Shown: in pieces, positions 3,623 to 64,000 of the stretch
Position numbering within the stretch: the first letter of the stretch is position 1
Layout of the letters: each line of letters begins with the position of its first letter
Source of the DNA: Mytilus edulis
Lineage: Eukaryota
Direction: 5' to 3'
DNA length: 64,000 nt
Assembly: GCF_963676685.1 (NCBI RefSeq)
Contig: NC_092354.1
Location: forward strand, 71,796,001 to 71,860,000
Notes under the pieces: generated by a model
What the model was told of the DNA's origin: nothing
Database searches by the model: none
The model's input: the letters and a program-made list of their open reading frames with translations, nothing else
Position numbers and translations under genes: made by a program

Positions 3623-3881
3623 GAATAAGTAACGAATAGGTAACGATAGGGAATAGGGAATAAGTAACGAATAGCGAATAGGGAATAGGTAACGAATAGG
3701 GAATAGGGAATAGGTAACGAATAGGTAACGAATAGGGAATAGGGAATAGGTAACGAATAGGGAATAGGGAATAGGTAACGAATAGGTAACGAATAGGGAA
3801 TAGGGAATAGGTAACGAATAGGGAATAGGGAATAGGTAACGAATAGGGAATAGGGAATAGGTAACCAACTTGACGTCCATA
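3623..3881. repeat. Compound GAATAGG / GAATAGGTAAC array ending in a ..GACGTCCATA terminus (likely one end of an IS3EU-type foldback element)
   Basis: Mixed 7- and 11-bp units at 3623-3865. The reverse complement of the end reads TATGGACGTCAAGTTGG, the same TATGG terminus type as the element at 55177-56377. Confidence 0.65.
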
Positions 3882-3887
3882 AATTAA

Positions 3888-6297
3888 TTTGGTATTGGTA
3901 ACGAGAGACAGATGCGTATTCCGAATGAAGTTACTTTGGATGATGGAACTATATCTAACAATTTAGAAACTGTTTTAAATAAATGGAAAAGTAGTTTTCA
4001 TAGTTTATTAAACCCAAATGTAGATGCAACAGATTATAATAAGGTTGAAAATTGTATTCTAAAAGAAAATATTATTTGTATTGATTTAGATAAGGAAATT
4101 ACTATTGATGAGGTTCATAAAGTTGTAATGAATGCAAAAAATTGTAAAAGTGCAGGAATTGACCTTATTCAAGCTGAATTTTGTAAAAATATCTCTATTA
4201 TTTCTATTTTACATAAATTATTTAACTTATGTTTCAGTTCTGGTAATGTACCAAATATATGGAATAAGGGAATTATAACCCCAATACCAAAATGTTCTAC
4301 ATCAGATCCTAGAGACCCCTTATCTTATAGGGGCATAACTCTAGCCCCATTCACATACAAGATGTATTGTAGTATTTTAAATGAAAGATTAGTCAAATGG
4401 TTAGATGAAAGGGAAATAATTAACGACGAGCAAAACGGTTTTATGAAAGGCAAAAGTACAATTGATCATATAAGCACTATAACATCAATAATAGAAACCA
4501 GGAAAAAGTGTAAATTGTCAACATATGTAGCTTTTATAGACTTTAAGAAAGCATATGAATCAATTAATAGAGTTTTTTTGTTTAACAAACTGGAAAATTT
4601 AGGTATTAGTTCAAAATTTATGTATTCTTTAAAAGCTTTATACTCTAATGTAGAATGTAGTGTACGTACTAATGGTAATATGACTGAATGGTTTAATGTT
4701 GATTCTGGATTGAAACAAGGTTGTGTTTTATCATCTATAATGTTTAATATATATATAAATAATTTGGTTGAGGATATTAATGCTTTGAATATTGGTATTA
4801 ACATAGATGAAGAAAAATTAGCTATATTGTTATATGCTGATGATGTTATTTTAATGGCAGAGAATGAAGAAGATTTGCAAAAAATGTTGAATGTGCTTAA
4901 TACATGGTGTCTCAACAATGAGTTGACAGTTAATATAAATAAATCTAAGATCATGCATTTTAGAAATCCAGCTGTTTTACAAACTAAATGTACTTTTTCT
5001 ATTGGTGGTAATGGTTTGGAATGTGTAAAAAGTTACCAATATTTAGGCTTATTACTGACTGAATTTTTAGATTATCAGTTAATGGCTAAGGCAGTAGCGA
5101 AGTCAGCCAGTAGAGCATTAGGATTATTAATTGTAAAGAGTAAAACGCATGGTGGTTTCCAGCACAAAATTTTTTTCAAAACTGTATGATACAATGGTAT
5201 GGTCAGTTATTAGTTATGGTGCAGGTATTTGGGGAACCAGAGACTTTTCCTGCATAAATGCAGTCCAAAACAGGGCCATGAGATTTTTCATGGGGGTTGG
5301 CAAATACACTCCAAATGATGCCATAGCAGATGATATGGGCTGGAAACCTCCATGCGTTAAACAATGGTCAAGTGTCTTGAGACATTGGGCTAGGTGTTCC
5401 ATAATGGACCCACACAGGATAAATTTTAAAATTTTTAAGTGGTCTATACGAAAGTGTAATACTAGAATTAAAAACTGGAGTTTTAGAGTTATAGAAATGT
5501 TAAAATTGTATAATTATGAGCAATATTGTAATTTTGAATTAAATGTATTGAACAAAAATTGTATTAAACAAATTGAAGAAGATGTATTTGATAATTTTAA
5601 ATCAAATTGGTGTACAAGAGTTGCTGCATATGCAGAGGGAAGTAAATTGAGGACTTACAAATTGTTTAAAAATAACTATTGTACTGAAAATTATTTGCAA
5701 AATATTTTGTCATTAAAAAACAGAAGTTCATTTGCTAAATTTAGATGTGGGGTAGCTCCACTAAAAATAGAAACTCGAAGATATGAAAGGAAAGAAGTAC
5801 ACGAGAGGACATGTTTTAACTGTAGCTCTATTGTTGAAGATGAACTACATGTCATTTTAAAATGCCCATTGTATGTGGATCTAAGACAAATCATGATACA
5901 TGAAGCGATACATTTTAATGAACATTTTAACCTTTTATCAGATAATGAAAAATTTATATTTTTATTTAGTAATGGCAATGTTGCTGCTATAGTTGCCAAA
6001 ACCTGCAACAATATTTTATTAAGAAGAAATAGTATTTTATTTCACTAGTTCTTAATGAAACAAATGTTTTACTATCATTTAGTAAAAATGTATATTGTGA
6101 ATTTTAATTATAAATTGTAAATTTTTTTTTTATATGTATATAATACAATGTATATCTTAAAAGTCTTTCATAAATCTTTTTAAGATTGGTACATGCAATG
6201 CAAATGTTTTAATGTTTTAAATCTATGTATGTGAATATCATTTTATGTTTGTATGTGGTGAGACTATAATAAAATATTGAATCTGAATCTGAATCTG
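3888..6297 (+). mobile_element. 5'-truncated non-LTR retrotransposon (LINE; RTE-X/CR1-group-like ORF2) with one frameshift
   Basis: RT motifs YRGITL, QNGF, FIDFKKAY, GLKQGCVLS and LLYADD in 3912-5189. Frameshift in a T-run at ~5170 continues into 5149-6048 with KLRTY and a C-terminal CxxC..EDExH..C domain. AATAAA and a (GAATCT)n tail at ~6268-6297. Confidence 0.92.
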
Positions 6298-23018: not shown

Positions 23019-25981
23019 TCATGAATTTGCGCATTCTTCTTCATCTGACTGATCACCAGTCCCGCAATCAAACTCTTCATCACATTTCCATTTCAATATT
23101 ATACACCTTCCACTTGCTGTACACCGGAAGTGATTATCTGGATCAAGATCACAGTAGTCTGCAAATATGAAAAATAAAACTATAAAATATAACATACTTA
23201 ATGCTATAACGATTTATGGATAAAGGACTTAATGGTCGGCAATGATCATACCAAAACAAACAAGTTCCCACAGCGTTCAACTACCAACACTGCGGGTGGT
23301 ATGAGTGCCAATGAGACAACTCTCCATCCAAATAACAATTTATAAAAGTAAACCAGTTTGCTATACCATGACTATCGATGTTGCAGTAACGTATTCGACT
23401 TGGTACAATAATTAGAATCATAATTGCGGTCATCCAGTAATAAACTTAAAATTTATAAATATTTTTTAGAAATGAAAATAGATAACATGAATAAGTTACA
23501 AAACGTTTGTACCCGAAACGAATTTTGGGATTAAGATTCAACAGGAATGTTTCACAAAGTTTAAACCAATTATATGTAACTAAATAAATGCTCCAGAGGG
23601 TAAGCAGATCCTGCTCTACCTGTGTCACAGATCGCACTGTACATGTTCAAACAAACAAAATCCCAGTAATGAATCGATTTCGTTAATGTCACAGTCGGGA
23701 GATGATAACAATTTCGAGTAGATAAAAGAGCACACAATGATACATGAGCTATGATAGATTCACACTTTCGTTTAAAAAATCAAGTTTTTATATTTGAGTA
23801 ATATTTTATTTGTTAACACTATTAAACTAAAGATATATTGTTAACTTATACCTTACCTTTGCCTTCACATTGGATCTCGTCAGAGTTATCAGAGCAGTCT
23901 GGAACTCCATCACACAACCATCTTTGAGGAATGCACCTCCCACATTCACACCTAAATCCGGAGCATTGACCTATAGATGATAAATGGATGAATAATGTTT
24001 GCCATTGCTTTAATATAGAAAAACATGTTTTATAAAGTAACTACATTATTACTAAACTTTCTTATTTTAAACACAATCTCAAAATATTTAATACTAATGA
24101 AATTTCGAATACGAATTATATAAACCATCTCTGTGGTTGATCCAAGGTATCGGGTCGGGCAATTGGTTCCGGGAGTTAGATCAACCTTTTATTTTAAAAT
24201 CAATTTTGGATGGGGACATTTGGTTTTAGAATTGCGGGATTTGGCACTGGATCTTTTATGTTTGGTAATACATATCTATCAGTTCCCCGTAGAGTATATT
24301 TTAGACAAGTTTCCTTTTGACCAAAAACAATAGTCTGTAACTAACATTACAATTTAAACTAAATGCAGAAGATAGTAGGAAAGAACATTATAGATGTCAA
24401 AGGATTGGTACATGAACCGGCTAATGTATTTGGTCTACACAATCAAGAATAAAGTTCCTCTAGAAAGTTTAAAGAAGCAACTAAATAATCAGTACGCACG
24501 ATATACCATCCCTACTAAATTATATAGAGTATATCATTATTAATAAACAAAATTACCACAGAGATGCCTATTGTCCTCGTCTGAAGTATCATCTAAGCCG
24601 CAGTCTTTATCACCGTCACATCGCCAACTCGATGGTATACATCTACAGTTTGTGCATTGAAAATATCCACTTGGACATGATGTACATATCGTTTCGTCTG
24701 TTATGTCTGCAAACATATACATACAGTTGTTTTATTTTAAATTCTTACCTCTGCTGCCCCATCAACTTTCGAACATATATTCAATATATCAGTGATAAAA
24801 ATTATTAAGAGGAACTCAAAAACAAATATGTCAATAGACAGAAAGAGACAGAAAAACAAAGAATATGTCAATAGACAGAAAGAGACAGAAGAACGAACAT
24901 AAAAAAACTGTTCACAGAAAACTAAAGATTGAGACGCAAGGACCCCATCCAAGATGAGGGACAACATTAATGTTCATATTATCATGATCACAGAAAACTA
25001 AAGATTGAGACGCAAGGACCCCATCAATGATGAGGGACAACATCAATGTTCATATTATCATGATCACGGAAAACTAAAGATTCAGACGCAAGGACCCCAT
25101 CCAAGATGAGGGACAACATCAATGTTCATTTTATCATGATCACGGAAAACTAGAAATTCAGACGCAAGGACCCCATCCAAGATGAGGGACAACATCAATG
25201 TTCATATTATCATGATTACAGAAAACTAAAGATTAGGACACAAGGACCCCATCCAAGATGAGGGACAACATCAATGTTCATCATGATCACAGAAAACCAA
25301 CATTAGTTGATAATGACAATGAAAAGGAAACAGGGCTCTGGTAAAAGAACATATGCATGGTAATCAGGTAATCCATATTGGTCATCAAAATCATGTCGGC
25401 ATCACCAGTAGTGTATAACCATGTATAATGTATGTATAATGAGCCGAGCTCTATTTGTCCTTGATCAAATGACGTTGGTTATAAATCTTCTAAAACAATA
25501 CTGATTTTGCAGTGCATCACATCATCTGAATTCCTTATTGCCAAAGATATCAAGTCATACACGAATATTTGAACATCGTAATGTCCGACGGGGTATATAA
25601 TCTTGCACAGGCACATTCAGATGTTTACATTTTAAGACGTCAGGATTAAATGAGGCCGAAATCCATCTGCAAAATTAAAGTTCCAATTAAAGTTAACCCT
25701 CTGTTTTTTCTAGTTCAGATGGAAAGTAAATGTCACAAGTTTTTGCTCAGCTGAGTTTATTCGGGTACATGGTCGGCCTTTATAATTTGCATCATTTAAA
25801 AGAAGTGGGCTGCATGATTTGTTCAAGCCCAAGTCTTATGAGTAACGCTTGCTGTTATTGTGTAGGTTTTTTCTTACGAAATACGAATTAAAGTTAAGAA
25901 TCACTTACCTTGCATCACAACTGAACAATGAAGCGGTATGCCAAAATGGAATACTAAAATGAAAATCGAATGATAGTTCAT
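23019..25981 (-). CDS. Secreted protein: signal peptide plus 3 LDLa modules, ~158 aa, no TM (minus gene A)
   Basis: Exons 25981-25909 ([30 protein letters not shown] donor), 24706-24557 ([44 protein letters not shown]), 23970-23857 ([34 protein letters not shown]), 23158-23019 ([45 protein letters not shown]). All introns GT-AG, phase 1. Confidence 0.88.
24913..25297. repeat. 76-bp minisatellite, 5 copies, in intron 1 of minus gene A
   Basis: Unit CACAGAAAACTAAAGATTGAGACGCAAGGACCCCATCCAAGATGAGGGACAACATCAATGTTCATATTATCATGAT at 24913, 24989, 25065, 25141 and 25217; a single copy in the paralogue (~35667-35751). Confidence 0.9.
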
Positions 25982-44400: not shown

Positions 44401-47400
44401 TTGTTAGTTTTAAATGTGTTTTATGAATTTATTTTAATCGTTCATTACGTATTTCATTGTCTGTTGGAACCTTTAAGATTTTCCCTCAACACTGCATTGT
44501 TTGTATAAAGGAACATAATACTACTACTAACAGTGTATTGAAATAATATGGAATATACATGGTCTCCACGCGGTTGCTTTTAACCAATAATTTTCTTAAA
44601 AATGTGTAGGGGGTAGGAATATCCGAGGAAGATAATATAAAATCGTGTTGGCATATATTTCGGCTAAACATATAGCCTTAGTCGGTGTCAATGTGTTGAT
44701 TTTATCTTAATTTTTTCCCCCATAAATATAGCCTTAAAAATACATTAATGTCATATGAAACCTCAAATTAAAAAAAGAAAGATGCATATGTTTTTAATAA
44801 CAAAATAGATAGTTTTCATTATGAAAATTATGTACATATACTTTTTTCCGAAGAAAATTCTTTAATTTGTCCACATTAAGAAGAAGTTCACTTTTTTGAT
44901 TGCTTGCTTCCAGGAAGCAATTTGCCGACATATTTCCCGTATTCAAAGTGACCTTAGCGTGACCCTCTCGTAAAAATCCGGTGATCGCAATACGCATGGA
45001 TCTGTCACTGAAATAAACTATTATCTGATTGTACTAGTTTAACACGTGCTCAATATCCATGCTTCTTTGTTGATTGTTTACTATAAGGTGACAATCGGTA
45101 AACTTCGGCTTCAAACACGACAAGTAATGAGCAGCCATATTTTCACATCATAACAATCAGGGAGAGGAAAAAAATGACGATTATACGATACATTTGCGTA
45201 ATGAATGATAAAATTGTGCACAAAAGACTAAGTTAATGATATATACAAATGTACATGCATTGGTTCAAGAATTGGATAAAAATTATTTTTCACTCGTTTC
45301 ATAAGACTTTAATAATCGATTTTTTTTTATAGAAGTTGTTAATACCATACTTATGTCTTTCAAGGTTAAACATGTAACATGTTAATATCATACTGATGTC
45401 TTTCATGGTTAAACATGTAACATGTTAATATCATACTTATATGTGCTGGTGGTTGTACCACAGGATTGTGCATGCGTCTAGTGTGGTAGAGCCATATGCT
45501 TTTTATCACCGCTGGCTAGCCTGCTTCCAGGTGAAAAAGAAAGCCGAGTGAGTAAGTCTTTCTGCCAGTACATAGCCTCTGCACTATTCATGACTTCTGC
45601 AATGCCTCCACGCGACGGCACACGGTAACTAGGGTCTAGTACCCTAGGCATAATTGTATAGGATCTCGGAGCAGCAAGGGCCCCAGAGATGCAGTGTGTA
45701 GGCCCACCGGCCCCAGCTATGGGTAAATAGTTGGTTAGATGAAGATCATAGCTCTGTTAAAGCAGTTCATCTAAGAGAAGGACAACTTGATACAAAACCA
45801 ATGGCTAGATGGGAGTCATAAGCTCTGGTTAGCAGCTTATCTAGAGGAAGGAAACCTTGATTAATAAATCCCTGGCCCTCCTGGTAAGGGGGTTTGGCGT
45901 CAGGCTAATCACTTTGCCCTGTAAAAAAAGCTGATTACAGAAACTAATACAGTCGATAAACATGCGTGCCCTTCTAGGGTTGGAGCAGAAGTTGTTTTTA
46001 ATGCAACTGACCGCCATGCGATGCAGAGAATGACGTCTAATAAACCGATACCACTGTTTTCGCCCAAAAAAGTCACCAAAGTTGCGCAATGGAATGTACG
46101 CACAATGTATGAATGTGGAAAATGTGCTCAGATAGCAAAGGAGATGAGAAATTATGATATAAACATACTTGGCATAAGTGAGGCAAGATGGAACCAAAGT
46201 GGAGTTTTGACACTGGTAACAGGTGAGGAGATTCTATACTCGGGAAACCCAAATAAAAATGATTACCACACCAAAGGAGTAGCAATAATGCTTTCAAACA
46301 CATCAAAGAAGAGCCTGATGGAATGGGAACCAGTAAGTGAGAGAATAATGTGGGTGAGACTAAAAGCTTAATGCCAAAACATAACTATCATACAGTGTTA
46401 TGCACCAACCAATGATGCAGAAGATGATGTAAAGGAATGTTTTTATGAACAACTACAACATGTTTGGGACAACATCCCCAAAAGAGACATCAAAATAGTC
46501 ATGGGTGATATGAATGCTGAGATTGGAAAAGAGAACAAGGACAGAGAGAAAACACTAGAAAAACATGGTCTAGGAGAAATAAATGAGAATGGAGAAAAGC
46601 TAGTTGAATTCTGTGAGATGAATGAGCTTGTGATAGGAGGCAGTTTATTTCCACATAAGAACATACACAAGGAGACATGGGAATCACCTGATGGAAAAAC
46701 AAAAAATCAGATTGACCACATCATGATAAGCCAGAGATGGAGAAGCTCACTACAAGACGTTAGAGTTATGAGAGGAGCAGATATCAGCTCAGACCACCAT
46801 CTTATCATAGCCAAAGTAAAAACAAAACTTGCAAAAGGGACCAAAGTAGAACAAAAACGTATTAAGTATAATGTGGAGAAGCTCAAAGACCGACGTATAC
46901 ACCTCAAAGATCAATTCCAGATTAAGCTCAGAAACAGATTTGAAGTACTTAAAGATGGGCCAGACCTGGACATAAATAACGAATGGGAAGTGGGAAGAGA
47001 TATCATCAAGGAAGTGTGTGAAGATGTACTTGGTAGAAAAACTAACAAAAAGAAAGATTGGATGTCACTTGGAACGTGGGATAAAGTAGAAGAGAGGAGG
47101 AAAATGAAGGAAAATTTAAACAATGCAAGAACAAGGGCTAAAAAACAAGAAGCACAAAACAAACACCAGCTTCTCAACAAAGAAGTGAAAAACTGTTGTA
47201 GGAAAGACAAGAGAGAATATGTAAATGACCTAGCAACTGAAGCAGAATTTGCTGCATATAAGGGCGACATCAAAACCTTGTACAATATCACCAAAACCCT
47301 TAGTAGACGTAAAACAGCTAAGTCTAAACCAGTAAAGGATAAAGATGGAAAAGTCCTAACCAGTCTTAATGAACAGATGGAAAGATGGAATGAATACTTT

Positions 47401-50400
47401 GTCAATGTCCTGAATAGACCAGAACCAGACCAACCAGTAATAGTAGAGCCAGCTGGGGTAGATTTTAATATTAAAATAGATAACATCAAGAAATATGAAG
47501 TGAAAAAGGCCATCAAATCACTAAAAAATGGAAAATCTGCAGGCATAAGTGAAATACCACCTGAAGTTTTCAAATCTGGAGGCAATGACATAATCGAATA
47601 CATGTACAAACTCCTGAATAAGATCTGGCAGGAAGAAAAGATACAAACAGAATGGTTAAAGGGTTTGTTAGTGAAGCTGCCAAAGAAAGGTGATTTAGGG
47701 CTATGTGAGAATTGGAGAGGCACAACACTTCTATCAGTAGCTAGTAAAATACTGTGCAGAATTATACTCAGCCGAATTAAAGATGCAATTGATCAGGTAC
47801 TGAGAGACGAACAAGCAGGTTTCAGATCAAACAGAAGCTGCACTGACCAAATATCAACGCTACGTACCATCATTGAACAATCGGTAGAATGGCAATCATC
47901 CCTCTACATCAACTTTGTCGATTTTGAAAGGGCATTCGATATTGTCAACAGAGAAGGGCTGTGGCAACTGCTAAGGCATTATGGCATACCAACAAAAATT
48001 GTGAACATGATCAAGGCGTTGTATGAGGATTACACAGTACAGGTGATACATGAATCATCATTCACCAATCCTTTCCATGTAAATAGTGGTGTGAAACAAG
48101 GCTGCCTACTCTCCCTTACACTATTCTTGATAGCTATAGACTGGGTAACAAAGCAAGCACTAGACACTACACCAAGAGGTATACAGTGGAACTTCGCACA
48201 AAGGCTAGAAGACCTAGATTTTGCAGATGATCTGGCTCTGTTATCTTACCGTTTGAAAGACATGAGAGACAAAACCACCGAACTCCATGAAACAGGAAAG
48301 AAACTAGGGCTAAAAATCAACATCAAGAAGACAAAAATTATGAAAGTAAAGACCAGAAAAGGAGGAACAGTGTCAATTGAAGGTGAAAATATTAAAGAAG
48401 TAGATCAGTTTACTTATTTAGGAAGCATCATGGATAGAACTGGTGGGACAGATGCAGACATCAGGACAAGAATAAGTAAAGCTCGACAAGCTTTTGCTAT
48501 GCTGAAGCCAGTTTGGAAATTAACAGCATTTACAGAAAACACCAAAATTCGAATTTTTAACACAAATGTTAAATCAGTCCTTTTTTATAGTGCAGATACC
48601 TGGAGACTAACAGCAGGGGTACAACATAAAATCCAGGTTTTTATCAACAAATGCCTGCGCCAAATTTGTAAATTTTGGTGGCCAGAAACCATTAGTCACA
48701 AATGCCTATGGGAAAGAACCAACCAGGAACCAGCAACTAAACAGCTAAAGATGAGAACTTGGCAATAGATTGGGCATACTTTGAGGAAACCTGTAGGTAC
48801 CATCACTAGACAGGCATTAGAATGGAATCCCCAAGGACATCGGAGACCGGGAAGACCATTTCACAGCTGGAGAAGATCAAGGCACAAAGAGCTGGATGAA
48901 ATTGGATATACCTGGACCGAAGCAAAAAGGATAGCCCAAAATAGAGTAAGACAGAAAGCGACTGTAGCAGCCCTATGTTCCACAAGGAACGAAGAGGATT
49001 AAGTAAGTAAGTGAGTATGTCTTTCAAGGTTAAACATGTAACATGTTAATATCAATATCAGAATTTGCTGCATATTAGGGCGACATCAAAACCTTGTACA
49101 ATGTAACCAAAACCCTTAGTAGACATAAAACAGCTAAGACTAAACCAGTAAAGGATATAGATGGAAAAGTCCTAACCAATCTTAATGAACAGATGGAAAG
49201 ATGGAATGAATACTTTGTCAATGTCCCGAATAGACCAGAACCAGACCAGCCAATAATAGTAGAGCCAGCTGGGGTAGATTTGAAAATTAGAATAGATAAC
49301 ATAAAGAAATATAAAATGAAAAAGGCCATCAAATCACTCAAAAATGAAAAAAAACTGCAGGCATAGATGAAATACCACCTGAAGTTTTCAAATCTGGAGG
49401 CAATGACATAATAGAATAAATGTACAAACTTCTGAATAAGATCTTGCAGGAAGAAAAGATACCAACAGAATGGTTAAAGGGTTTGTAGTGAAGCTGCCAA
49501 AGAAAGGTGATTTAGGGCTATGTGAGAATTGGAGAGGCATAACACTTCTATCAGTAGCTAGTAAAATACTGTATAGAATTATTTTCAGCCGAATTAAAGA
49601 TGCAATTGATCAGGTACTGAGAGACGAACAAGAAGGTTTCAGATCAAACAGAAGCTGCACTGACCAAATATCAACACTACGTACCATCATTGAACAATCG
49701 GTAGAATGGCAATCATCCCTCTACATCAACTTTGTCGATTTTGAAAGGGCATTCGATAGTGTCAACAGAGAAGGGCTGTGGCAACTGCTAAGGCATTATG
49801 GCATACCAACAAAAATTGTTAACATGATCAATGCGTTGTATGAGAATTTCACAGTACGGGTGATACATAAATCATCATTCACCAATCCTTTCCATGTAAA
49901 TACTGGTGTGAAACAAGGCTGCGTACTCTCCCCTACACTATTCTTGATAGCTTATAGACTGGGTAACAAAGCAAGCACTAGACACTACACCAAGAGGTAC
50001 ACAGGTGAACTTCGCACAAAGGCTAGAAGACCTAGATTTTGCAGATGATCTGGTTCTGTTATCTCACCGTTTGAAAGACATGAGAGACAAAACCAACGAA
50101 CTCCATAAAACAGGAAAAAAACTAGGGCTAAAAATCAACATCAAGAAGACAAAAATTATGAAAGTAAAGACCAGAAAAGGAGGAACAGTGTCAATTGAAG
50201 GAGAAGATATTGAAGAAGAAGATCAGTTTACTTATTTAAGAAGCATCATGGATAGAACTGGTGGGACAGATGCAGACATCAGGACAAGAATAAGTAAAGC
50301 TCGACAAGCTTTTGCTATGCTGAAGCCAGTTTGGAAATTAACAGCATTTACAGAAAACACCAAAATTCGAATTTGTAACACAAATGTTAAATCAGTCCTT

Positions 50401-53400
50401 TTTTATAGTGCAGATACCTGGAGACTAACAGCAGGGGTACAACATAAAATCCAGGTTTTTATCAACAAATGCCTGCGCCAAATTTGTAAATTTTGGTGGC
50501 CAGAAACCATTAGTAACAAATGCTTATGGGAAAGAACCAACCAGGAACCAGCAACTAAACAGCTAAAGAGGAGAACTTGGCAATGGATTGGGCACACTTT
50601 GAGGAAACCTGTAGGTACCATCACTAGACAGGCATTATAATGTAATCCCCAAGGACATCAGAGACCGGGAAGACAATTTCACAGCTGGAGAAGATCAAGG
50701 CACAAGGAGCTAGAGGAAATTGGATATACCTGGACAGAAGCAAAAAGGATAGCCCAAAATAGAGTAAGATGGAAAGCGACTGTAGCAGCCCTATGTTCCA
50801 CAAGGAACGAAGAGGATTAAGTCAAGTAAGTCATGTTAATATCATACTTATGTCTTTCAAGGTTAAACATGTAACATGTTAATATCATACTTATGTCTTT
50901 CAAGGTTATACAAAGACGAAAGGAAGGGAATACAAATTTTTATCGAGGATGGCAAGACTATAAAATTGGTTTTGGTGACCAAACAGAAGAATTCTGGTTA
51001 GGTATATAATTGATACCGCTAATGCTAACATTAACAAATAAGCGGTACTGGTTTTTTTATAATTTAGATTGGAAGTTAAAAGTCATTCAATACTAAGTCA
51101 AAACAGTTTGCATGAAGCATTTTCATTATTTACAGACTAACTTACAGTTACTTGAATGGAGAGTTGTCTCATTGGCACTCATACCACATCTTCCTATATC
51201 TATATAATAGTAAATAGTTATCAAAGGTACCAGGATTATAATTTAGTACGCCAGACGCGCGTTTCGTCTACATAAGACTCATCAGTGACGCTCATATCAA
51301 AATATTTATAAAGCCAAATTTAGTGAATCATAAAATGATTAAAACATTATTCTTTTTTATAGCTTGTGATATATTGTTCAAATGTTTTCTAGGTAACGAG
51401 AAGATTCACAAACTAACGACAGGAGAACGATATCAGCTACGAATTGAACTACAGGACTGGAATAATGACACAAAATATGCTTTATATAATACTTTTAATT
51501 TGGGAAACGAAGCTTCAGGTTATAAACTGACAATCGGAGGTTACAGTGGTACTGCAGGTATGTAGGGAATTCATGGCAAAATTATTAAATGTAATTGTAC
51601 TTATTATCAAATTTGATGCGACTATCATATAAGTCAGAGGTTTAGCTAGCTATAAAACCAGGTTTAATCCACCATTTTCTTCATTAAAAAATGCCTGTAC
51701 CAAGTCAGGAATATGACAGTTGTTATCCATTTAATTAGGGATTTTCCTTTATGAATTTTCAATTGAACAGGAAGACGGGATTAAGTATTAGTGTGATTTT
51801 ACTTTTTCCAATATTGCAACTTGACATTTACTTAAACGCATCATTATATTAAATAGCATTTATTTCCGTGCTATTTTTGTTTTAGAATCTCTAATACTAA
51901 ATAAGACCACCTGTTTTAGCGTGTCGCCTTTCCAACCAAAAGATTGAATTACATGATTATTTGCCCTGATGCTATTGTGTACAGTATAATTTGTTATATG
52001 TACTTGTATTATCACGAATGAAATTGTTCGACTGTCCTGATTTAATGAGTCGTTTTTCAAGCTTCACCAGTAGTCTGTTTTATTAAGCTTTTCTGTTTGT
52101 CACGAATCTGTGTGTTAACTTTTACATACGGGGTAAATATCTCCCAATTGATACTTTATTCCCGTGCTTGTATTTTCTATCATGATTTGCTTGATAAAGT
52201 GTTGCTGCTCACAAGGAAGCTATTAAACCAAGAGTTCCAAATGGTGAAGTTGAAATCATCTCTTCGTATATTTTACGGACGCCATCACACATTCACAGTT
52301 GATATGTTCCTTACGTCGTAACTACAATCCCCTACCCTTTCATGAATGTGACCTACCGAATTAGACTATTTACCGGATCTGTCATAACATGAGCAACACG
52401 AAGGGTGCCCCTTGTGGAGCAGGATCTGCTTACCCTTCCGGAGGCCCTGAGATCACCTCCGGTTTTTGGTGGGGTTTGTGTTGCTTATTCTTTAGTTTTC
52501 TATGTTATGTCATCATGTACTATTGTGTGTCTGATTTGTCTTTTTCGTTTTTAGCCATGGCGTTGTGAGTTTATTTTCGATTTATGAGTTTGACTGTCCC
52601 TCTGGTATCTTTCGTCCCTCTTTTATTGTAAAGTTAAGATTAAATGAAATATTCTGCCGAACATATTACACCCGTCATGTTGTTTGTGGTAAATAATATT
52701 TAATGAAAAAAAAAAACCAGAGGTTTGTTTACGACCATTGGAACATATCCGAAATCGTCTCACCCTGCGACACAGGTAAACCAACTAGTGATGGTTTCAA
52801 TTTACATTGCTAAGAGATGACTTAAGCTTTGCCGCTTGTACTTCTTAGCTTTATTGATATCAGGAACCCTTTTACACATAGAAATCTCTCTTTTCGTAGG
52901 CTGAAATAATCCAGTGTGTTGTGAACTTTTGTTCATGGTCAAACGTGAAGATAAGTAATAATGACAGCATCTTTTCATTCTTCCTTAGAAGCTCCTTGAA
53001 GACGCAAACCTCATATGAATAAACGAAATATGGTTTGGCGAGTATCATGTCCTATAAGGTTAAAGTGACGCCATCAATAGGTGGCACGTTATAGAAATTC
53101 TGTGTCGCAAAATGTGTACTCACCATTATCAACAAACTTGGTGCCACATGTTGAGCGAAATGAGAGATTTATGGAATGAGTTATTTTTTATTTAAAGCTA
53201 AAATCATTATTATTTATTTACTAAATTAACTTTATTCTTGCATTTACATTAACATAATGTGTATTCTTTAGGAGATTCTATGATATACAGCAATGGTGCC
53301 ACATTCGGTACAAAAGATGAAAATGCTTGTGCAAAATCAAAATTTGGGGCTTGGTGGTACAAAGGCTGCACACACTCTAATCTGAATGGGGAGTATCTTC

Positions 53401-55176: not shown

Positions 55177-56377
55177 TATTGCAAGCCGTTCTCGTCAAAA
55201 CTATGTTTAAACCCTTTTTTCGAAAAAAATACACACTGAGATTTAAAAACCTAAAATAACACACAGAGAAATCGAAATTACACACTGAGATTTAAAAAAA
55301 TAAAAAACACACACTGAGAATTCAAAATTACACACTGAGATTTAATAAAACACACTGAGATGAAATAAATTGAAAAACACACACTGAGAATTGTTAATTA
55401 CACACTGAAATTTCAAAAATACACACTGAGATTAATATGTAAATTACTAATGAATATTCATGAGATGAATAATTCAACAGATTAATATCTTGATCTCAAG
55501 AACTCTTGTCATTATAATGAAATGCGATTCCTTCAACCAACATTCGTAATAAATTTCAAGACTTAACATTGTCATATTCATAAGTTTGTTGCCTATAATT
55601 CAGATCATTACTACCAGTAATTAAACATGTGTCCCTTTTCTGATTTCGCTAGTTAATCTTTTATATTTTTGTTACGTTTATATGCTATAATAGACACTTG
55701 AGTAAAAATTTCACTGCATTTTTTTGCAGATTGTTCCAATGTTTTCTTATAATTTTAATAAAGTTTTTCACCATTTGGTTATATTTTGTAATAAGAGTAA
55801 GTGGGTATTTTTCTTGTTCTTGTATTTCTAAAGTTTTTTTATTAATAATTTGGAACTAAATCGAAAGACTAACGAGTTCTGTCCCCTTGTTGTTTTAAGC
55901 TTGTAATAGATTCAGATTAAGTATGCTAATTAGATATGTGCGCTTAAAAAGTGCGCACAAATCTCAGTGTGTAATTTTAAATTCTCAGTGTGTAATTTTA
56001 AATTCTCAATGTGTAATTTCAAATTCTCAGTGTGTGTTTTCAGTTTATTTATTCTCAGTGTGTCTTTTTGAAATCTCAGTGTGTAATTTTCAATTCTCAG
56101 TGTGTTATTTTCCAATTCTCAGTGTGTAATTTTCAATTCTCAGTGTGTAATTTTCAATTCTCAGTGTGCGTTTTTCATTTTTGTAATCTCAGTGCGTCTT
56201 TATGAAATCTCAGTGTGTAATTCTCAGTGTGTAATTTTCAATTCTCAGTGTGTAATTTTCAATTCTCAGTGTGCGTTTTGAAGTTTTTAAATCTCAGTGT
56301 CCTTTGTTGTAATTCTCAGTGTGTAAATTTTTCGAAAAATAGTTTAAACATAGTTTTGACGAGAACGGCTTGCCATA
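55177..56377. mobile_element. IS3EU-type non-autonomous foldback element
   Basis: TIR TAT(T/G)GCAAGCCGTTCTCGTCAAAACTATGTTTAAAC; 6-bp target duplication TGTTGT (55171-76 and 56378-83); inverted subterminal arrays of ~21-bp ACACACTGAGA units. TAY..RTA termini with a 6-bp TSD fit IS3EU. Confidence 0.8.
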
Positions 56378-57229: not shown

Positions 57230-60200
57230 GCAGTCGCAGACAAGGACGAGTAAATCAATTCGTTCCAATTAAGAAGATAAGATTTTGATCGATATGCGCA
57301 TGTGTGAACAGTATGGACGTTATTTTTTTTTGGCTCGTTAAAAATTAACGAAATTAATAGAAATGAACTTTAAAATTATATTGTGAGATTTTATTCTTGT
57401 GAATATACGAATGAACTGACTTGTGATACTGTATGAATCAAAAAAAGGATGGATTTGGGACTCGAAAAAGGAAGAATTCGAAGGATCAAAATATCAGCGG
57501 TGAGAAACCTCAAAAACAAAAACAAACAAAAAAGAGTAGTACTCACAAAGTTAAAAATGTAAATAAACAATCGGCAGCAGTACAAAACAAAATAGATCCT
57601 ATATTACCTTCTGCTTCTACTATGACCTCTTATGACTCTTGTCAAATGATACAGGGAAAACAAAACATGCAGCACTTTATTCAGCCTCAACAAAATTTCG
57701 CATCTCCAGTTTTTCAACAGATGTCTCCTATGTCAGGATATTATCCCGTACCCTCTCAGAGCCCGAGTCACTCGATGCCCCCGCCAATTATGCAATCCAC
57801 TTTAAATCAAGGCAGCGAATCCGGTGATAAAATAGACTTTTTGGTTCAGAAAGTTGAAGAAATATTTAAAAAACTGTCAAGTATTGATGAATTAACCAAA
57901 AAGATTGGAAATTTTGAGATCAGTGTTAAAAGTTTGACAAAAACTGTTGAGAAAGGTTCAAAACGAATTGATGAAGTTTAAAAAAGTATGGAGTTTATGA
58001 ACCAAAATTTTGAAAGTAGTAAATCTGAAAGTGAATATCTTAAAACAACAATCACAGAAATTAAAAGTGAACACGGTGAAATGATTAACGGTTTCGATTG
58101 TCTGAGGGCTGATATGGACGAATTACATGAGCGACATGTAGACTTACAAATAAGGTCTATGAGGGAAAACCTTGTGTTCTCGGGTATACCAGAACTTTCC
58201 GAAAATGAACCATCAGAGCAAACTGAAGACATTATAAAAGACTTTATGAAAACAAATATGAAAATGGATATTGTAATGGACTTTCAGCGCGCACATAGAT
58301 TTGGAAAAAAAAAATACAAATTAAAATAGACGACAGAGACACTTATATGACCAGACCAATAGTGTGCAGATTTAAAAATTTCAAAGATCGCGAATTAGTC
58401 AGATCTTTTGCGCGAAACCTCAAAGATACCAAATTTGGGGTGAATGAACAGTTCCCGAAAGAGGTTAATGACCGCCGCAAACTTCTCTGGCCATATTATA
58501 AGGAGGCAAAAAAACAAGGACAGAAGACGCACTTCAAACGAGACAAGCTGTTTATTAACGGCAAAGAAATTGGACCACCTACCGATCGTCACATGGAAAC
58601 AGACAACAGACAAAAAGAAACAGAAGGCGCACGACAGAAAGAACCATCCCACAGTGGTCCTCAACAGAACAACGACCGTCCCCGTGGAGCCCCTCGTAGA
58701 CGCGGAAAACATAGCTAGGTAAACCGTGGAGGTTTAACGGACACTTTTATTGACAGTTTAAATCATTCAGATGGAACTAACTCTCACATTAACACTAGTA
58801 TTAATTATAATCATGTAAATAAAGATATTGTTCATCTATTGTCATTAAATGTTTGTGGATTAAAACGGAAACTACTGTATCAAGAATTTAGAGATTTATT
58901 AAAATGTAATGATTTATTATGTCTTACTGAAACAAAATTGGACGATTTAGATGAAATTAATTTTGAAGATTTTACATTTCATTATAAAAACAGGAAAAAA
59001 AAAATTTACTAGCTTTAGATCAGGTGGGATAGCTTTAGGCTATAGATCACAGTATGCAAAATTTATTCATTGTATAGAAACCGATTGTCCTTTTGTTTTA
59101 TGGTTTAGAGTAGATAGAATATTATTTAGAACTGAAGATGATATAATAATGGGTATAGTGTATATGTAACAAAAAATATGTTCCGGCGTGACATTTGTTC
59201 CGCTGGAACAAATTTCATAGGAAATATGTTCCGCCGGAACTTATATCACAGAAAATATGTTCCAGCACTGTAAAATTTGTTCCGGAACTAATTTTTTAGA
59301 CCAAATATGAAATAAGTTCCTGAACAAATATCATAGCTCCATGAATTTTGTTCCAGTTAATATTAAACGTTTTAAATAAGTTCCTGTGATATTAGTTTAA
59401 GACCAATATGTGCATATTTCAAAGAAATCAATGAATAAGTTCTTCTCAAACCTATTTTCACTGAAATAAGTACCTTTGCAACGTATTGCACAGCGAAACA
59501 TTTTCTTGTTACACTTAAATTATAAAGCAAGCTAAATGCTGTACTGAGTGTGCTGGCATGGGATACATGTGCCGTGAATTGTAGGCATGACTACAAAGTT
59601 CTACAGGATAAAGTGATGGTAATTTATCATAATTTGTATCTATGTTTTATGTAGTATTCCTCCTTGGTTCCTGTTAACTGTCATGGCCCTGTTTCTAGTC
59701 ATACATGTACTTGTCATGGAACAGTTTCAAAAGAGTGTGTCTTTTGTTTCTTCATGTCTTTTGGAATCATTAATCAGTTATTTTGTCCTTTTTAAATTAG
59801 TTCATATGTTCATGTTCATCTTTGACTTTATTTTTTTCTGAAAGATTTTTCTTATCCTTATACTCTTTTCTGGCTCAAAGTGGGACTGTCATTTTGATAT
59901 TTTTTTACGTTTATAATTAAACATTTGCTATAGTCCACAAGATTCTTATTGGATGATTTACATTTTTCATTTATTATACATGTATTATCAATATATTATA
60001 CTTATTTTTATAATGCACTTGAATGATAACTTTAAACTCATTGATGACAAATGTTCAGTATATAAGATAACCTGTTTAACCAGTGGAACATATTTCACAG
60101 ACTAGGAACTTATTTTACCAGGTGAGGAACAAATTTCACAAACCCAGAACTTATTTCACCAGGTAAGGAACAAATCTCATAAACCTGGAACCTATTTCAC

Positions 60201-61767
60201 TAGGTAAGGAACAAATTTCACCAACCCGGTACTTATTTCACCAGGTAAAGTGTGGAACTTATTTCATAGAGATGGAACAAATTATATTGAAATTATCTAT
60301 GAAAAAAGTTCTCCCAGAACATATTTCCTGTGATATTAGTTCCACTGGAACTTTTTTCACAGGAACAAATTTTGGCTCACATATATCCCGCCTGAAAATA
60401 CTCGTTATACGTCTGAAAATGCGATGTCAGAAATTGAAATTGAATTTCTTGAATTACAAAAGAATAGTAACTGTATTTTTCTTCTTGGTGATTTCAATAG
60501 TCGTACTGCAAATGAACAAGATTTTTTTAATACATCTGATTTCGAAGAACATTTAACCGAATTTATAGATGTAAATGAGTTTAATGACATTCATGTCTTA
60601 GACGATCTTAAGATACCAAGAATACGTAATAGTTCTGATACTGTTGTCAATTCATATGGAAGAAAATTAATTCAATTTTGTAAAAATAATAACATGTATA
60701 TTTTAAACGGAAGAGTCGGTAAAGACCGAGTACTTGGTAAACCAACAAGTCGAAGTATTAGTGTAGTAGATTATATTTTATGTACTGCTAATATTTTATG
60801 TAAAGTAGATGATTTTAAAGTTTCTGATTTTTGTAATTTATTCTCAGATATACACGCTCCTTTGTGCTTGTCTTTAACTGTAAATGGTTGTAATGCTACA
60901 CAAGGTGAAAGCGAAGTAATTACTGACAAAAATGTACACATTGGTAAATGGAAACACGAAAAGACAATTGAATACAAAAACAACATTGATGTTGATAAAG
61001 TAAACGAATTATTGTTAAATGTAATGTCTAAATATGATGATATAAGTTCAGTTGATCAAGCTACTGTAGATAGTATTGTAAGTGATATTACGACTGTATT
61101 ATTGAGTGCAGCAAAAGACACTTTTGGGGTATTTACTAAAAATTCAAAAAACATTGGCGGGGAAGGGAATTTTTCAAACAAAGATTGGTTTAATAAAGAC
61201 TGTAAAAAGGTTAGACAAGAATTTCGAAAAAGCAGAAGACTTTATAAACACTATGGCTCGAATTTATTTAAAGAAAGACTTCGACAGTCAGAAAAACATT
61301 ACAAAAAGGTCATGGACGAGAATATTAAAAAATATAACGAAAACTTGCGCACTAAGATGAGAAATATGCGATTCAAAAACCCCAGGGAATTTTGGAAAAT
61401 TTGGAATAAAGTCAAACATAAAAACAATTGTAATATCACCACTGAGTCATTGTTTACTTTTTTTAAAGATATAAACAAAAATAAGTATGAAGGAGATACT
61501 TATGATATTAACAATGATGTTGGTCAAGAATCTTCAAATTCTATGTTAAATGAAAGTATTACAGCTGAAGAAATATTAAAAGCTATAAAACATATAAAAA
61601 ATAATAAATCGTCGGGTGACGATATGATTGTTAATGAATACATTTCCTCGTCTATTGATTGTATGATTGATATTTATGTGTATATTTTTAATATTATTTT
61701 TGATTCGGGTATTTTACCCGAGGCATGGATTATAGGTAATGTCATACCAGTCTTTAAGAACAAAGGT
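57230..61767 (+). mobile_element. Disrupted two-ORF LINE (L1-type coiled-coil/RRM ORF1; APE plus start of RT), interrupted by two insertions
   Basis: ORF1 57433-58718 with a stop at 57979 and a frameshift at ~58310 (RSMRENLVFSGIPE, RAHRFG, RPIVCRF, VNEQFP, DKLFING). ORF2 motifs LSLNVCG, CLTETK, SGGIA, VYIPP, GDFNSR and VVDY, up to IPVFKNKG. 5' boundary approximate. Confidence 0.88.
59165..60381. mobile_element. Ginger-type non-autonomous foldback element inserted in the LINE endonuclease
   Basis: TGT..ACA termini, 4-bp TATA target duplication (59161-64 and 60382-85), inverted subterminal ~21-bp GGAAC/GTTCC arrays. Removing it restores GTG TAT ATC CCG CCT (VYIPP) in frame with ORF 60424. Confidence 0.85.
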
Positions 61768-62106
61768 AGATATAGGAGAGGAATACGAATGTAAGATGGA
61801 GGCGTAAAATTTTTCGCTCCTCAGATAAGTCAATTATTTGCTATATATGATGTATAATTATGGATAATTCGTAGATGCTTCAATTTATGCTTAGTTGTGG
61901 GACCTTCCGCCCGGATAATTTATCTGATTTAATAATAGAAAATGACATTTTCAGATCTATTTTTTTAAACTTGTGTGATATTATCTTCCATTCATAACAT
62001 ACGTAAAATCTAGAGACCATACCTGTAACCCGGGGGTATTGAATATCAAACTGAACTGTAGTCAAGTGTCGCAAAGCAATTTGAGGCTCTATACGAGTGG
62101 ATAAAA

Positions 62107-63198
62107 ATGGAAGAAGAAAATGTCAATACCTCCCAAATGTTAAATACCAGCAGAGATGTTCTATACGGGCAACCCGAACAAAGCGTAACTTTAGATAATG
62201 TCTATCAATTAATGCTAGGTATAAATGAAAGACTTACAACTATCGAAAAGGGAATGTCACAAGTTAATCAAATGAACAGAACTTTGACAAATTTAGTAAC
62301 AAAATTCACTGAAATAAACTCAAAAGTTGCAGAAGCTGAAGGGCAAATTAAAAATTTAAAAAGTAGATGTGATAGCAACGATGGAAAAATGTCCCAGATA
62401 AAACATGATCACACTGAACTAAATAAAGAAGTTAAAAATATGAAAAAAATCCCAACTGATGCTAATAATAACTTACAGGGAATTAGCGACTTCATGGACG
62501 ATTTCAAGGTAAATCACGAAAACAACGTAAAAGATGTAAAATCGGCTAAATCATCCATTAGTAAAGTAGCAAATGACCTTGCAGATAACACTTTGGAGCT
62601 GAGAAATGAAATTAAAGCAGTCGTCAAAAACGCAAAACAAGAAAATGAAATTCTACAAAGCACCGATATTGACCTTCAATGCAGATCAATGAAGAATAAC
62701 TTGGTTTTTACTGGTTTGACGGAAACCGAAGGAGAAAACACTGAAGAAGTTATTAGAACATTTATACAACAGTTCTTACATATAACACACAGAATAGAAT
62801 TCGGCAATGTTCACAGATTTGGATATGGTGCCAAACCAGGCAGACGCGGACGCCCTAGACCGATTGTGGCCAGATTCTTATATTACAAAGATTTGGCACG
62901 ATCGCTCTCAAATACATACAGGCTTAAAGGAAAACCGTTTGGGGTTAATCAACAGTTCCCTGAAATAATTGAACAAGCACGCAAAAGCCTATACCCAGTC
63001 ATGAAACAGAAACGCATAGAAGGACACACAGTTAAGCTAGTTAGAGACATTTTGTACGTGGATGGTGAAATGTATAACGACCAAATTTCGGACATAGAAC
63101 CTACTGACAGTCTCGCATCTCAAATGCGCACACCGGACCACCATCAAAACCGGAAACGACGTCGACGCATATCTTCGACTCCTAACCCAGACAGCTAG
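62107..63198 (+). CDS. LINE ORF1 protein (coiled coil plus RRM/CTD, L1/Transposase_22-like), 363 aa
   Basis: Heptad-rich N-terminal half, then RSMKNNLVFTGL, VHRFG, RPIVARF, VNQQFP and DILYVDG. Confidence 0.85.
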   Translation: MEEENVNTSQMLNTSRDVLYGQPEQSVTLDNVYQLMLGINERLTTIEKGMSQVNQMNRTLTNLVTKFTEINSKVAEAEGQIKNLKSRCDSNDGKMSQIKHDHTELNKEVKNMKKIPTDANNNLQGISDFMDDFKVNHENNVKDVKSAKSSISKVANDLADNTLELRNEIKAVVKNAKQENEILQSTDIDLQCRSMKNNLVFTGLTETEGENTEEVIRTFIQQFLHITHRIEFGNVHRFGYGAKPGRRGRPRPIVARFLYYKDLARSLSNTYRLKGKPFGVNQQFPEIIEQARKSLYPVMKQKRIEGHTVKLVRDILYVDGEMYNDQISDIEPTDSLASQMRTPDHHQNRKRRRRISSTPNPDS

Positions 63199-64000
63199 GA
63201 TTCCAATGGAGATTTTAATATGTTGAAGAAACAAGGATGTGCAAATAACAGAAAAACAAGTTATGACAAAAATATCTGTAAAAATGTCAACAGTTCATTA
63301 GACTTAAAAATATTGTCGCTCAATTGTTGTGGGATAATGACCAGAATGCAATATCCCGAATTTATAGAACTCGTTAAATGTTATGACTTTATCTGCTTGA
63401 CAGAAACAAAAACTGATGATTTTGATAATGTTGATATACCAGGTTATACTTTTAAATTGAAAAATAGAAAAACTAAATCAAAAGTCAAATCAGGTGGTAT
63501 TGCATTTGGATATAAAAATGAATTAGAAAATTATGTGCAAACAATAGAAACAGAGAGTAATTTAGTATTTTGGGTTAAAATTTCAGCCAATTATTTAAAA
63601 ACAGAACCAGATGTTATGATTGGTACAGTGTATATACCACCCGAAAATTCTACCTATAAGGTACCAGATTCAATAAATATACTTGAACAAGAATTTCTAA
63701 AATTTTCAGTAAACCATGAGTCTATTTTGCTTACTGGTGATTTTAACAGCAGAACTGCTGCCAATTTAGACTTCTATGAAATAACAAATACCAATCATGA
63801 CACATCAGATAATTTTAATATTGATTTTTCAAACAATTTACACAAGTTTCATATGTCACGTTTTAGAAATAGTTGCGACAAGACAAAAAACCACTATGGC
63901 AATCTACTTTTAGAAATGTGTAGAAATAACAATCTGTTTATTTTAAACGGTAGGGTTGAAGGTGATAAAGAAGGCTTATTTACATGTCGCCAGTCAAGTG
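63199..64000 (+). CDS. LINE ORF2 N-terminus (AP-like endonuclease), partial; absent from the ORF track because it has no stop in the window
   Basis: LKILSLNCCG, FICLTETK, SGGIAFGY, VYIPPENS, LTGDFNSRT and NLFILNGR, in the same frame as ORF1; first ATG at 63220. Confidence 0.88.

Follow-up and report, generated by a model that had tools for sequence, protein, structure and literature searches.

A conserved in-frame amber junction between ORF1 and ORF2 of putative RTE-X-type LINEs in Mytilus edulis, a candidate for programmed readthrough

A stretch of 64,000 nucleotides (nt) from Mytilus edulis (assembly GCF_963676685.1, contig NC_092354.1, positions 71,796,001 to 71,860,000, forward strand) was analysed and is called the window below. 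It contains two nested long interspersed nuclear elements (LINEs), probably of the RTE-X type, in which open reading frame 1 (ORF1) is joined to ORF2 in the same frame across a single TAG codon. Judged by comparison with related copies, the junction is real and widely conserved: frame and amber codon were fixed, the open linker behind the stop was free in length and no conserved AUG was present, as stop-codon readthrough predicts. Programmed amber readthrough yielding an ORF1p-ORF2p fusion is regarded as the probable explanation for these LINEs, and would be a new use of a known recoding mechanism.

The junction in the window elements and in their relatives

The two elements were laid out as follows (AP, apurinic/apyrimidinic; RT, reverse transcriptase; aa, amino acids).

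57295..61775, forward strand: element 1, a decayed LINE, putatively RTE-X-type (tblastn map; 5' end approximate; RT region cut by the insertion of element 2)
57433..58718, forward strand: ORF1 of element 1, ending at TAG; broken (ORF1 profile E-values 1e-19 and 3e-29)
58716..58718, forward strand: junction TAG of element 1, endonuclease in the same frame
58719..61775, forward strand: ORF2 of element 1, AP-endonuclease and start of the RT; interrupted by an insert; first endonuclease motif not preceded by an in-frame ATG
58727..58732, forward strand: G/purine run of element 1, +9 to +14 past the stop
59165..60381, strand unspecified: non-coding insert of 1217 nt in the element 1 endonuclease; splits the V-Y-I-P motif and lies outside the junction
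61776..64000, forward strand: element 2, a young LINE, putatively RTE-X-type, nested in element 1 (start approximate; extends beyond the window end)
62107..63198, forward strand: ORF1 of element 2, 363 aa, intact (N-terminal coiled coil; conserved C-terminal half of RNA-binding type; basic, low-complexity tail)
63196..63198, forward strand: junction TAG of element 2, endonuclease in the same frame
63199..64000, forward strand: start of ORF2 of element 2, with linker, in-frame ATG at 63220 and AP-endonuclease (PF03372, E 4e-6); open until the window end
63207..63212, forward strand: G/purine run of element 2, +9 to +14 past the stop

An earlier note, made from the letters of the window, had described both joins, and the single in-frame TAG was confirmed in both elements (58716-18 and 63196-98). 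As also described there, an in-frame ATG is missing at this place in element 1 and present in element 2; the stretch without ATG in element 1 is 43 codons long up to the Asn of LNVCG, and the ATG of element 2 is codon +8. ORF1 of element 1 carries a stop at 57979-81 and a frameshift in a run of ten A (about 58305-14); its ORF2 is frameshifted at about 58995-59004, in a second such run. Element 2 was inserted into the RT region of element 1 near 61776, and its ORF1 product shares all but 4 of 363 residues with protein P0011 (source name Mytilus galloprovincialis). Endonuclease domains (PF03372/PF14529) were matched on both elements, and relatives have a full-length ORF2 with AP-endonuclease followed by RT. 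The C-terminal half of ORF1 recurs in 177 proteins; those that carry a source name come from molluscs or from an invertebrate metagenome. In many of these homologues a basic K-R-x-R patch and then S-T-P stand just upstream of the ORF1 stop (63150-63195 in the window); this stretch may direct nuclear import and contain a phosphorylation site.

The two elements are 41% identical over 73 aa of ORF1 and 50% identical over 58 aa of endonuclease. Since they fall into one subclade of a quick tree (Shimodaira-Hasegawa-like approximate likelihood ratio test 99), they are not independent and alone prove little. A scan of genome contigs with an ORF2 alignment gave 23 related loci, presumably animal DNA inside bacterial assemblies, of which eight without the junction region were excluded (L012, L015, L017-L019, L021-L023) and 15 were kept. 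Counts are given below for 17 junctions (15 loci plus elements 1 and 2) or for 15 in-frame junctions (13 loci plus elements 1 and 2). A genome scan with the ORF1 alignment yielded 168 pattern matches with none confirmed, and the plasmid collection yielded no match.

Random frame offsets, named in the earlier note as contrary evidence, were not seen among the relatives. The upstream frame was joined to ORF2 over one TAG in 13 of the 15 loci, so that the layout of type III readthrough, with two coding regions parted by one in-frame UAG, was found in these 13 and in both window elements. ORF1 was identified by profile in ten of the 13; in the other three the frame was open for 156-183 codons up to the contig edge. 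The two remaining loci, L002 and L016, are decayed copies in which ORF1 ends in TAG, an in-frame open stretch follows and a frameshift occurs shortly before the endonuclease, with further lesions in ORF2.

The stop was TAG in all 17 junctions. TAG accounted for 19.5% of the stop triplets in the window, and the terminal stops of ORF2 were TAA in six, TGA in four and TAG in two cases (n=12). ORF2 identity was mostly 33-54% between lineages and 64-77% inside one seven-member subfamily; between 13 and 550 codons separated the stop from the Asn conserved in the endonuclease. Of the four top-level branches of the quick tree, three contained the junction and the fourth had no row that shows the junction region. 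Rough odds of (1/3)^7 for the frame and 0.195^9 for TAG ignore common descent and overstate independence, because the 15 loci are related by descent and were drawn from only two assemblies.

All 15 loci (L001-L011, L013, L014, L016 and L020, on JBEVXV01 and JBEVXT01 contigs) are near full-length animal-type LINEs inside two bacterial species-representative assemblies, and are likely animal DNA from host contamination of these assemblies. Two of them contain long open linkers from TAG to endonuclease, rich in cysteine and histidine and partly repeated (L004, 1546-2470, about 300 codons; L014, 1560-3200, about 540 codons).

Published consensus sequences were compared by eye. Statements taken from cited sources refer, here and below, to the parts of each source that were available. 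Of the 84 RTE-X entries of PMC10294476, 83 were translated over the first ~400 nt each. A single in-frame TAG was present in all four entries with both sides of the junction visible (S.grandis_24, S.constricta_60, P.maximus_101 and M.edulis_90), the +1 base being G in three and A in one; the only ATG before the Asn among them lies within the first strand of P.maximus_101. TAG-G stands in the endonuclease frame, with no ATG and little upstream sequence visible, in S.grandis_10 and S.grandis_37; ORF1 of S.grandis_126 ends in TAG-G with the endonuclease outside the visible part, and the M.edulis_68 entry starts with AG-G. Over the same ~400 nt no junction was found in the other 74 RTE-X entries, nor was one found in the first 13 of 54 Proto2 entries or by motif searches of supplements 24 and 25. 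Three neighbouring entries not labelled RTE-X have an ATG a few codons ahead of the endonuclease motif.

Two annotated proteins run from ORF1 into the endonuclease: P0029 has Tyr and then Gly where its relative P0020 stops, and P0146 has Gln and then Gly at the stop position. Codons for Tyr and Gln are each one base from TAG. If both gene models are unspliced at the junction, they would confirm the common frame of ORF1 and ORF2. A search for ORF1 among longer proteins found ten, mostly spliced gene models or long ORF1s; a search with the endonuclease alignment, restricted to proteins >2072 aa, was uninformative.

A fusion could also arise by another route, namely A-to-I editing of UAG to UIG (Trp) in part of the transcripts, for which the amber/W site of hepatitis delta virus is a precedent. 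UAG is the preferred ADAR triplet, so editing would account for the strict UAG, and in three of 17 junctions none of 12 control TAGs had as good a duplex as the best one spanning the stop. The other 14 showed no such excess, partners lay at unrelated places and duplexes were short. Moreover, edited RNA that was copied back would give TGG, which was present in 0/17 junctions, and the fused proteins have Tyr and Gln. Editing also leaves the downstream G-run unexplained and is held to be very improbable.

Gene callers put introns near the junction (P0004). TAG/G fits the splice acceptor consensus and GGAG-type runs are enhancer-like, so that TAG/G might act as a 3' splice site with the purine run serving as exonic splicing enhancer, the spliced RNA linking an upstream AUG to ORF2. 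This is scarcely credible. No pyrimidine tract was found, the upstream T fraction being 0.17 vs 0.29 and the pyrimidine fraction 0.44 vs 0.48 (15 junctions vs 978 control TAGs), and a CAG acceptor occurred in 0/17 junctions; splicing requires neither the ORF1 stop as acceptor nor a common frame of ORF1 and ORF2. An amber junction explains the false introns or truncated ORF2 proteins that gene callers draw.

Start codons and sequence downstream of the stop

A conserved ORF2 AUG, the other contrary finding named in the earlier note, was likewise not seen. An in-frame ATG before the conserved Asn was absent in 11 of the 15 in-frame junctions and present in element 2 (codon 8), L003, L004 and L014, at positions 8, 10, 15 and 442 over the four. 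These positions are unrelated, and no conserved AUG of the SART1 or L1 type stands at or just past the ORF1 stop. In the remaining junctions the first Met lies within the endonuclease, at the latest at codon 131 (L006) or 212 (L005). Residues 2-83 after the stop of L006 align weakly to the start of an AP endonuclease (E 0.023). No in-frame stop interrupted the 693 codons that lie between the junction TAG and the first in-frame Met or the conserved Asn (13 loci); the other two frames contained 33 and 87 stops.

These data bear on the chief alternative route to ORF2p: termination at UAG and in-frame reinitiation a few codons on, at AUG or a near-cognate codon, giving free ORF2p while the G-run holds the ribosome. 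Reinitiation is the known route of L1 and SART1 (PMC5972666, PMC2881922, PMC10760644), and L1 was reported to restart independently of AUG (PMC5009743). An ATG is available within 15 codons in L003, L004 and element 2 and an ACG at codon +7 in element 1; in 9/15 loci codon +3 is near-cognate (GTG, CTG or ACG) and followed by G. Seven of these nine loci are one subfamily, however, and the count by lineage is 3/9, about the rate for any G-ending codon, with ATG at codon +3 in 0/17 junctions. L006 has neither ATG nor near-cognate, its codon +3 being GGG. The calicivirus tether, UGGGA, sits upstream of the stop, and the G-run here lies downstream. In the S.grandis_10 and M.edulis_90 consensuses of PMC10294476 the first endonuclease strand begins right after the stop. 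As reinitiation also leaves the invariant UAG and the invariant frame unexplained, it is considered unlikely.

The earlier note had further proposed a shared context, AGCTAGG-N7-TGGAG-N-TTT. This 23-nt pattern was indeed found at the two window junctions and nowhere else in the window (0.08 matches expected; two reached in 1/100 shuffles, the pattern having been defined from both sites). Its upstream part was not general, AGC preceding the stop in 2/17 junctions. Upstream AGC was dropped as a signal; the last ORF1 residue is Ser in 18/120 homologues vs an 11% background.

The conserved part consists of TAG, G at +1 and a G/purine run from +9 to +14. G was found at +1 in 14/17, at +9 in 14/17 and at +10, within the purine run, in 17/17 junctions; +11 and +12 were purines in 17/17. 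Among 11 lineage representatives +10 was G in all, vs 17% G downstream, and when 300 windows of 4 nt were compared for G, the best one began at +9. Position +9 is a third codon position and was G under five different amino acids in these representatives, which points to selection at the RNA level. The +1 G of type III contexts was thus present in 14/17 junctions and the stricter GGR hexamer in 3/17.

The same data speak to a chance or inherited neutral arrangement without function. The junctions all go back to a common ancestor, and that of element 1 sits in a dead copy; yet alignment between lineages fails around the junction and linker length varies from 13 to 550 codons, while TAG and the +10 G are invariant and the best G window begins at +9. 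Neutrality is most improbable.

RNA structure was less consistent. The hairpins named in the earlier note can form after the stop; their folding was no better than that of shuffled sequences (z 0.02 to 1.23, six windows), and they were neither stable nor shared. Local stability from +4 gave z below -2 in 2, 1 and 0 of 17 junctions over 40, 80 and 150 nt, and partners for +7 to +18 within 90, 180 and 600 nt gave combined z values of -0.58, 0.16 and 1.56 vs synonymous resampling. The consensus fold of the seven-member subfamily was weak (-4.8 kcal/mol), with two-sided change at 3/12 pairs. A short hairpin with +9:+18 was paired in 15/17 junctions, with one A-U and one U-A exchange; its nominal p of 0.004-0.021 vs column shuffles comes from a register selected out of 21, and the hairpin is taken as a lead only. 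Rfam gave no match for the window and three loci.

Pairing of the G-run with the 3' end of the element was analysed in the 11 of 13 loci that were usable. Permutation p values for three query windows were 0.10, 0.10 and 0.48, for presumed 3' ends; the region around a locus's own ORF2 stop ranked first in 4, 4 and 2 of 11 loci. At about 5585-5620 of L007 there is a 3' hairpin with one arm that could pair, for 10 nt, with the sequence behind the same element's junction stop, 3.4 kb upstream; this could be a switch or chance.

Proposed readthrough and its precedents

Under readthrough, the majority of ribosomes would terminate at UAG and release ORF1p. A minor fraction, perhaps a few percent, would insert an amino acid at UAG and continue via the variable low-complexity linker into endonuclease and RT, so that an ORF1p-ORF2p fusion would be made in parallel to ORF1p, as are Gag and Gag-Pol in gammaretroviruses. 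Residues inserted at suppressed UAG codons are Gln, Tyr or Lys, and one of these may be used here. The signal would be UAG-G together with the G/purine run 9-14 nt downstream, at the mRNA entry of the ribosome, with possible help from a short and weak hairpin (about +7 to +20). The coiled coil would carry the fusion into ORF1p trimers, setting the ORF1p:ORF2p ratio and loading the enzyme onto its own RNA. From the proposal of the earlier note, that a fusion is made by suppression of UAG, the common frame and the lack of a conserved AUG stood and the AGC and hairpin details fell; suppression itself is favoured on the sequence pattern.

Several points weigh against this reading. Formally, two loci (L002 and L016) do not keep the frame, and the loci are not independent, 15 being from two assemblies and seven from one subfamily. 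Four of the 15 in-frame junctions do have an ATG before the Asn, near-cognate codons followed by G stand at codon +3 in nine of 15 loci, and +1 is other than G in three of 17. Among the consensuses of PMC10294476, M.edulis_90 does not have G at +1, and D.rostriformis_73 is ambiguous and a possible counter-example with overlapping frames. P0029 and P0146 might derive from mutated copies or from errors in the gene models. UAG-G contexts of type III usually require downstream structure (PMC13517186), expected to begin about 8-9 nt past the stop, and no strong structure was found with the models used, which do not cover pseudoknots.

The arrangement resembles Beier-Grimm type III readthrough in gag-pol of gammaretroviruses and epsilonretroviruses, with one in-frame UAG-G between structural and enzyme ORFs (PMC13517186). 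The pseudoknot of Moloney murine leukemia virus begins at the ninth base past the stop, the position of the G-run here, and walleye dermal sarcoma virus has UAG GAU, the same as element 2 (PMC13517186). Unlike retroviral gag-pol, these LINEs have no pseudoknot or strong stem that was found, and no protease to cleave the fusion. The tombusvirus carnation Italian ringspot virus (CIRV) uses type III readthrough with a partner >3.5 kb away (PMC13517186). The LINEs share its UAG-G context, and in 4/11 loci the best G-run partner lies near the ORF2 stop; in contrast to CIRV, pairing of cognate vs non-cognate ends was not significant (p 0.10, 0.10, 0.48).

Among LINEs, the likeness to L1 and SART1 lies in a bicistronic RNA with ORF2 dependent on translation of ORF1; L1 has a 63-nt spacer and AUG and SART1 an overlapping UAAUG, whereas a fixed in-frame UAG, mostly without AUG, is found here (PMC5972666, PMC2881922, PMC10760644). 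The only precedent found for readthrough in LINEs is a proposal for the group 3 non-LTR (long terminal repeat) elements of Paramecium, made from consensus sequences in which ORF1 and ORF2 share a frame (PMC5405496). Unlike the bivalve LINEs, these form a separate ciliate clade, and no signal is described in the text available (PMC5405496). A full-text literature search, with subscription papers and Repbase Reports outside its scope, turned up no paper that deals with readthrough in RTE-X elements or in LINEs of molluscs. The genetic code of Paramecium also differs, UGA being its sole stop.

How ORF2 of LINEs is translated has long been unsettled; most experimental work concerns L1 and SART1, which both use reinitiation (PMC5972666, PMC2881922, PMC10760644). 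A bivalve-abundant clade that keeps one amber stop, frame and downstream motif over deep lineages would offer a second, retrovirus-like solution with a short, testable signal. If true, it would add a readthrough signal without an obvious pseudoknot, and the fusion would give a simple account of the ORF1p:ORF2p ratio and of enzyme loading on its own RNA. It is doubtful that the whole RTE-X clade makes a Gag-Pol-like fusion through an undescribed G-run signal (sequence or tiny hairpin) which in some lineages pairs with the 3' end of the same element, at a distance of 3.5 kb, and thereby limits the making of reverse transcriptase to full-length RNAs.

Classification and other features of the window

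Assignment of elements 1 and 2 to the RTE-X type is suggested by likeness, judged by eye, of 5' ends and ORF1 to labelled entries. The same ORF1 type was seen in C.gigas_6, M.edulis_178 and M.edulis_212, all labelled RTE-X in the supplement of PMC10294476, and the 5' end and ORF1 start of element 1 resemble M.edulis_212. Like bivalve RTE-X (RTEX), the elements have two ORFs with AP-endonuclease and RT, the same ORF1 type, and the in-frame TAG junction of four entries (PMC10294476). A full upstream ORF1 sets RTEX apart from RTE/BovB (PMC3905857), and the 363-aa ORF1 upstream agrees with RTEX in contrast to RTE/BovB. Unlike some RTEX elements (PMC3905857), those studied here have no esterase ORF1. 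The quick tree, which held no labelled RTEX reference RT, separated elements 1 and 2 from the RTE-type element of the window. Proto2 and RTE-X labels are discordant in some cases (PMC10294476). The available text of PMC10294476 does not address how ORF2 is translated; 'stop codon' occurs four times, the occurrences shown concerning ORF filters.

The inverted ends of the insert at 59165-60381 are imperfect and 20 nt long (TGT...ACA); the insert also has a TATA duplication and, internally, 79-nt repeats. Such ends occur in Ginger-type DNA transposons. A 5'-truncated LINE at 3888-6048 (RT and C-terminal region, one frameshift) is about 35% identical to elements 1 and 2 and has no junction. Pieces of an RTE-type LINE occupy 46162-50640 and include a partial duplication in tandem, 1.8 kb in size and 94-96% identical. 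Large segmental duplications with offsets of about 10.5-13.3 kb and 95-99% identity extend over 15460-36868 and contain repeated cysteine-rich exons like those of the low-density lipoprotein receptor. Tandem arrays were located at 719-1218 (21 nt), 1354-2199 (about 130 nt), 3626-3900 (25 nt), 24833-25288 (76 nt) and 55951-56331 (21 nt), both 21-nt arrays being partly palindromic.

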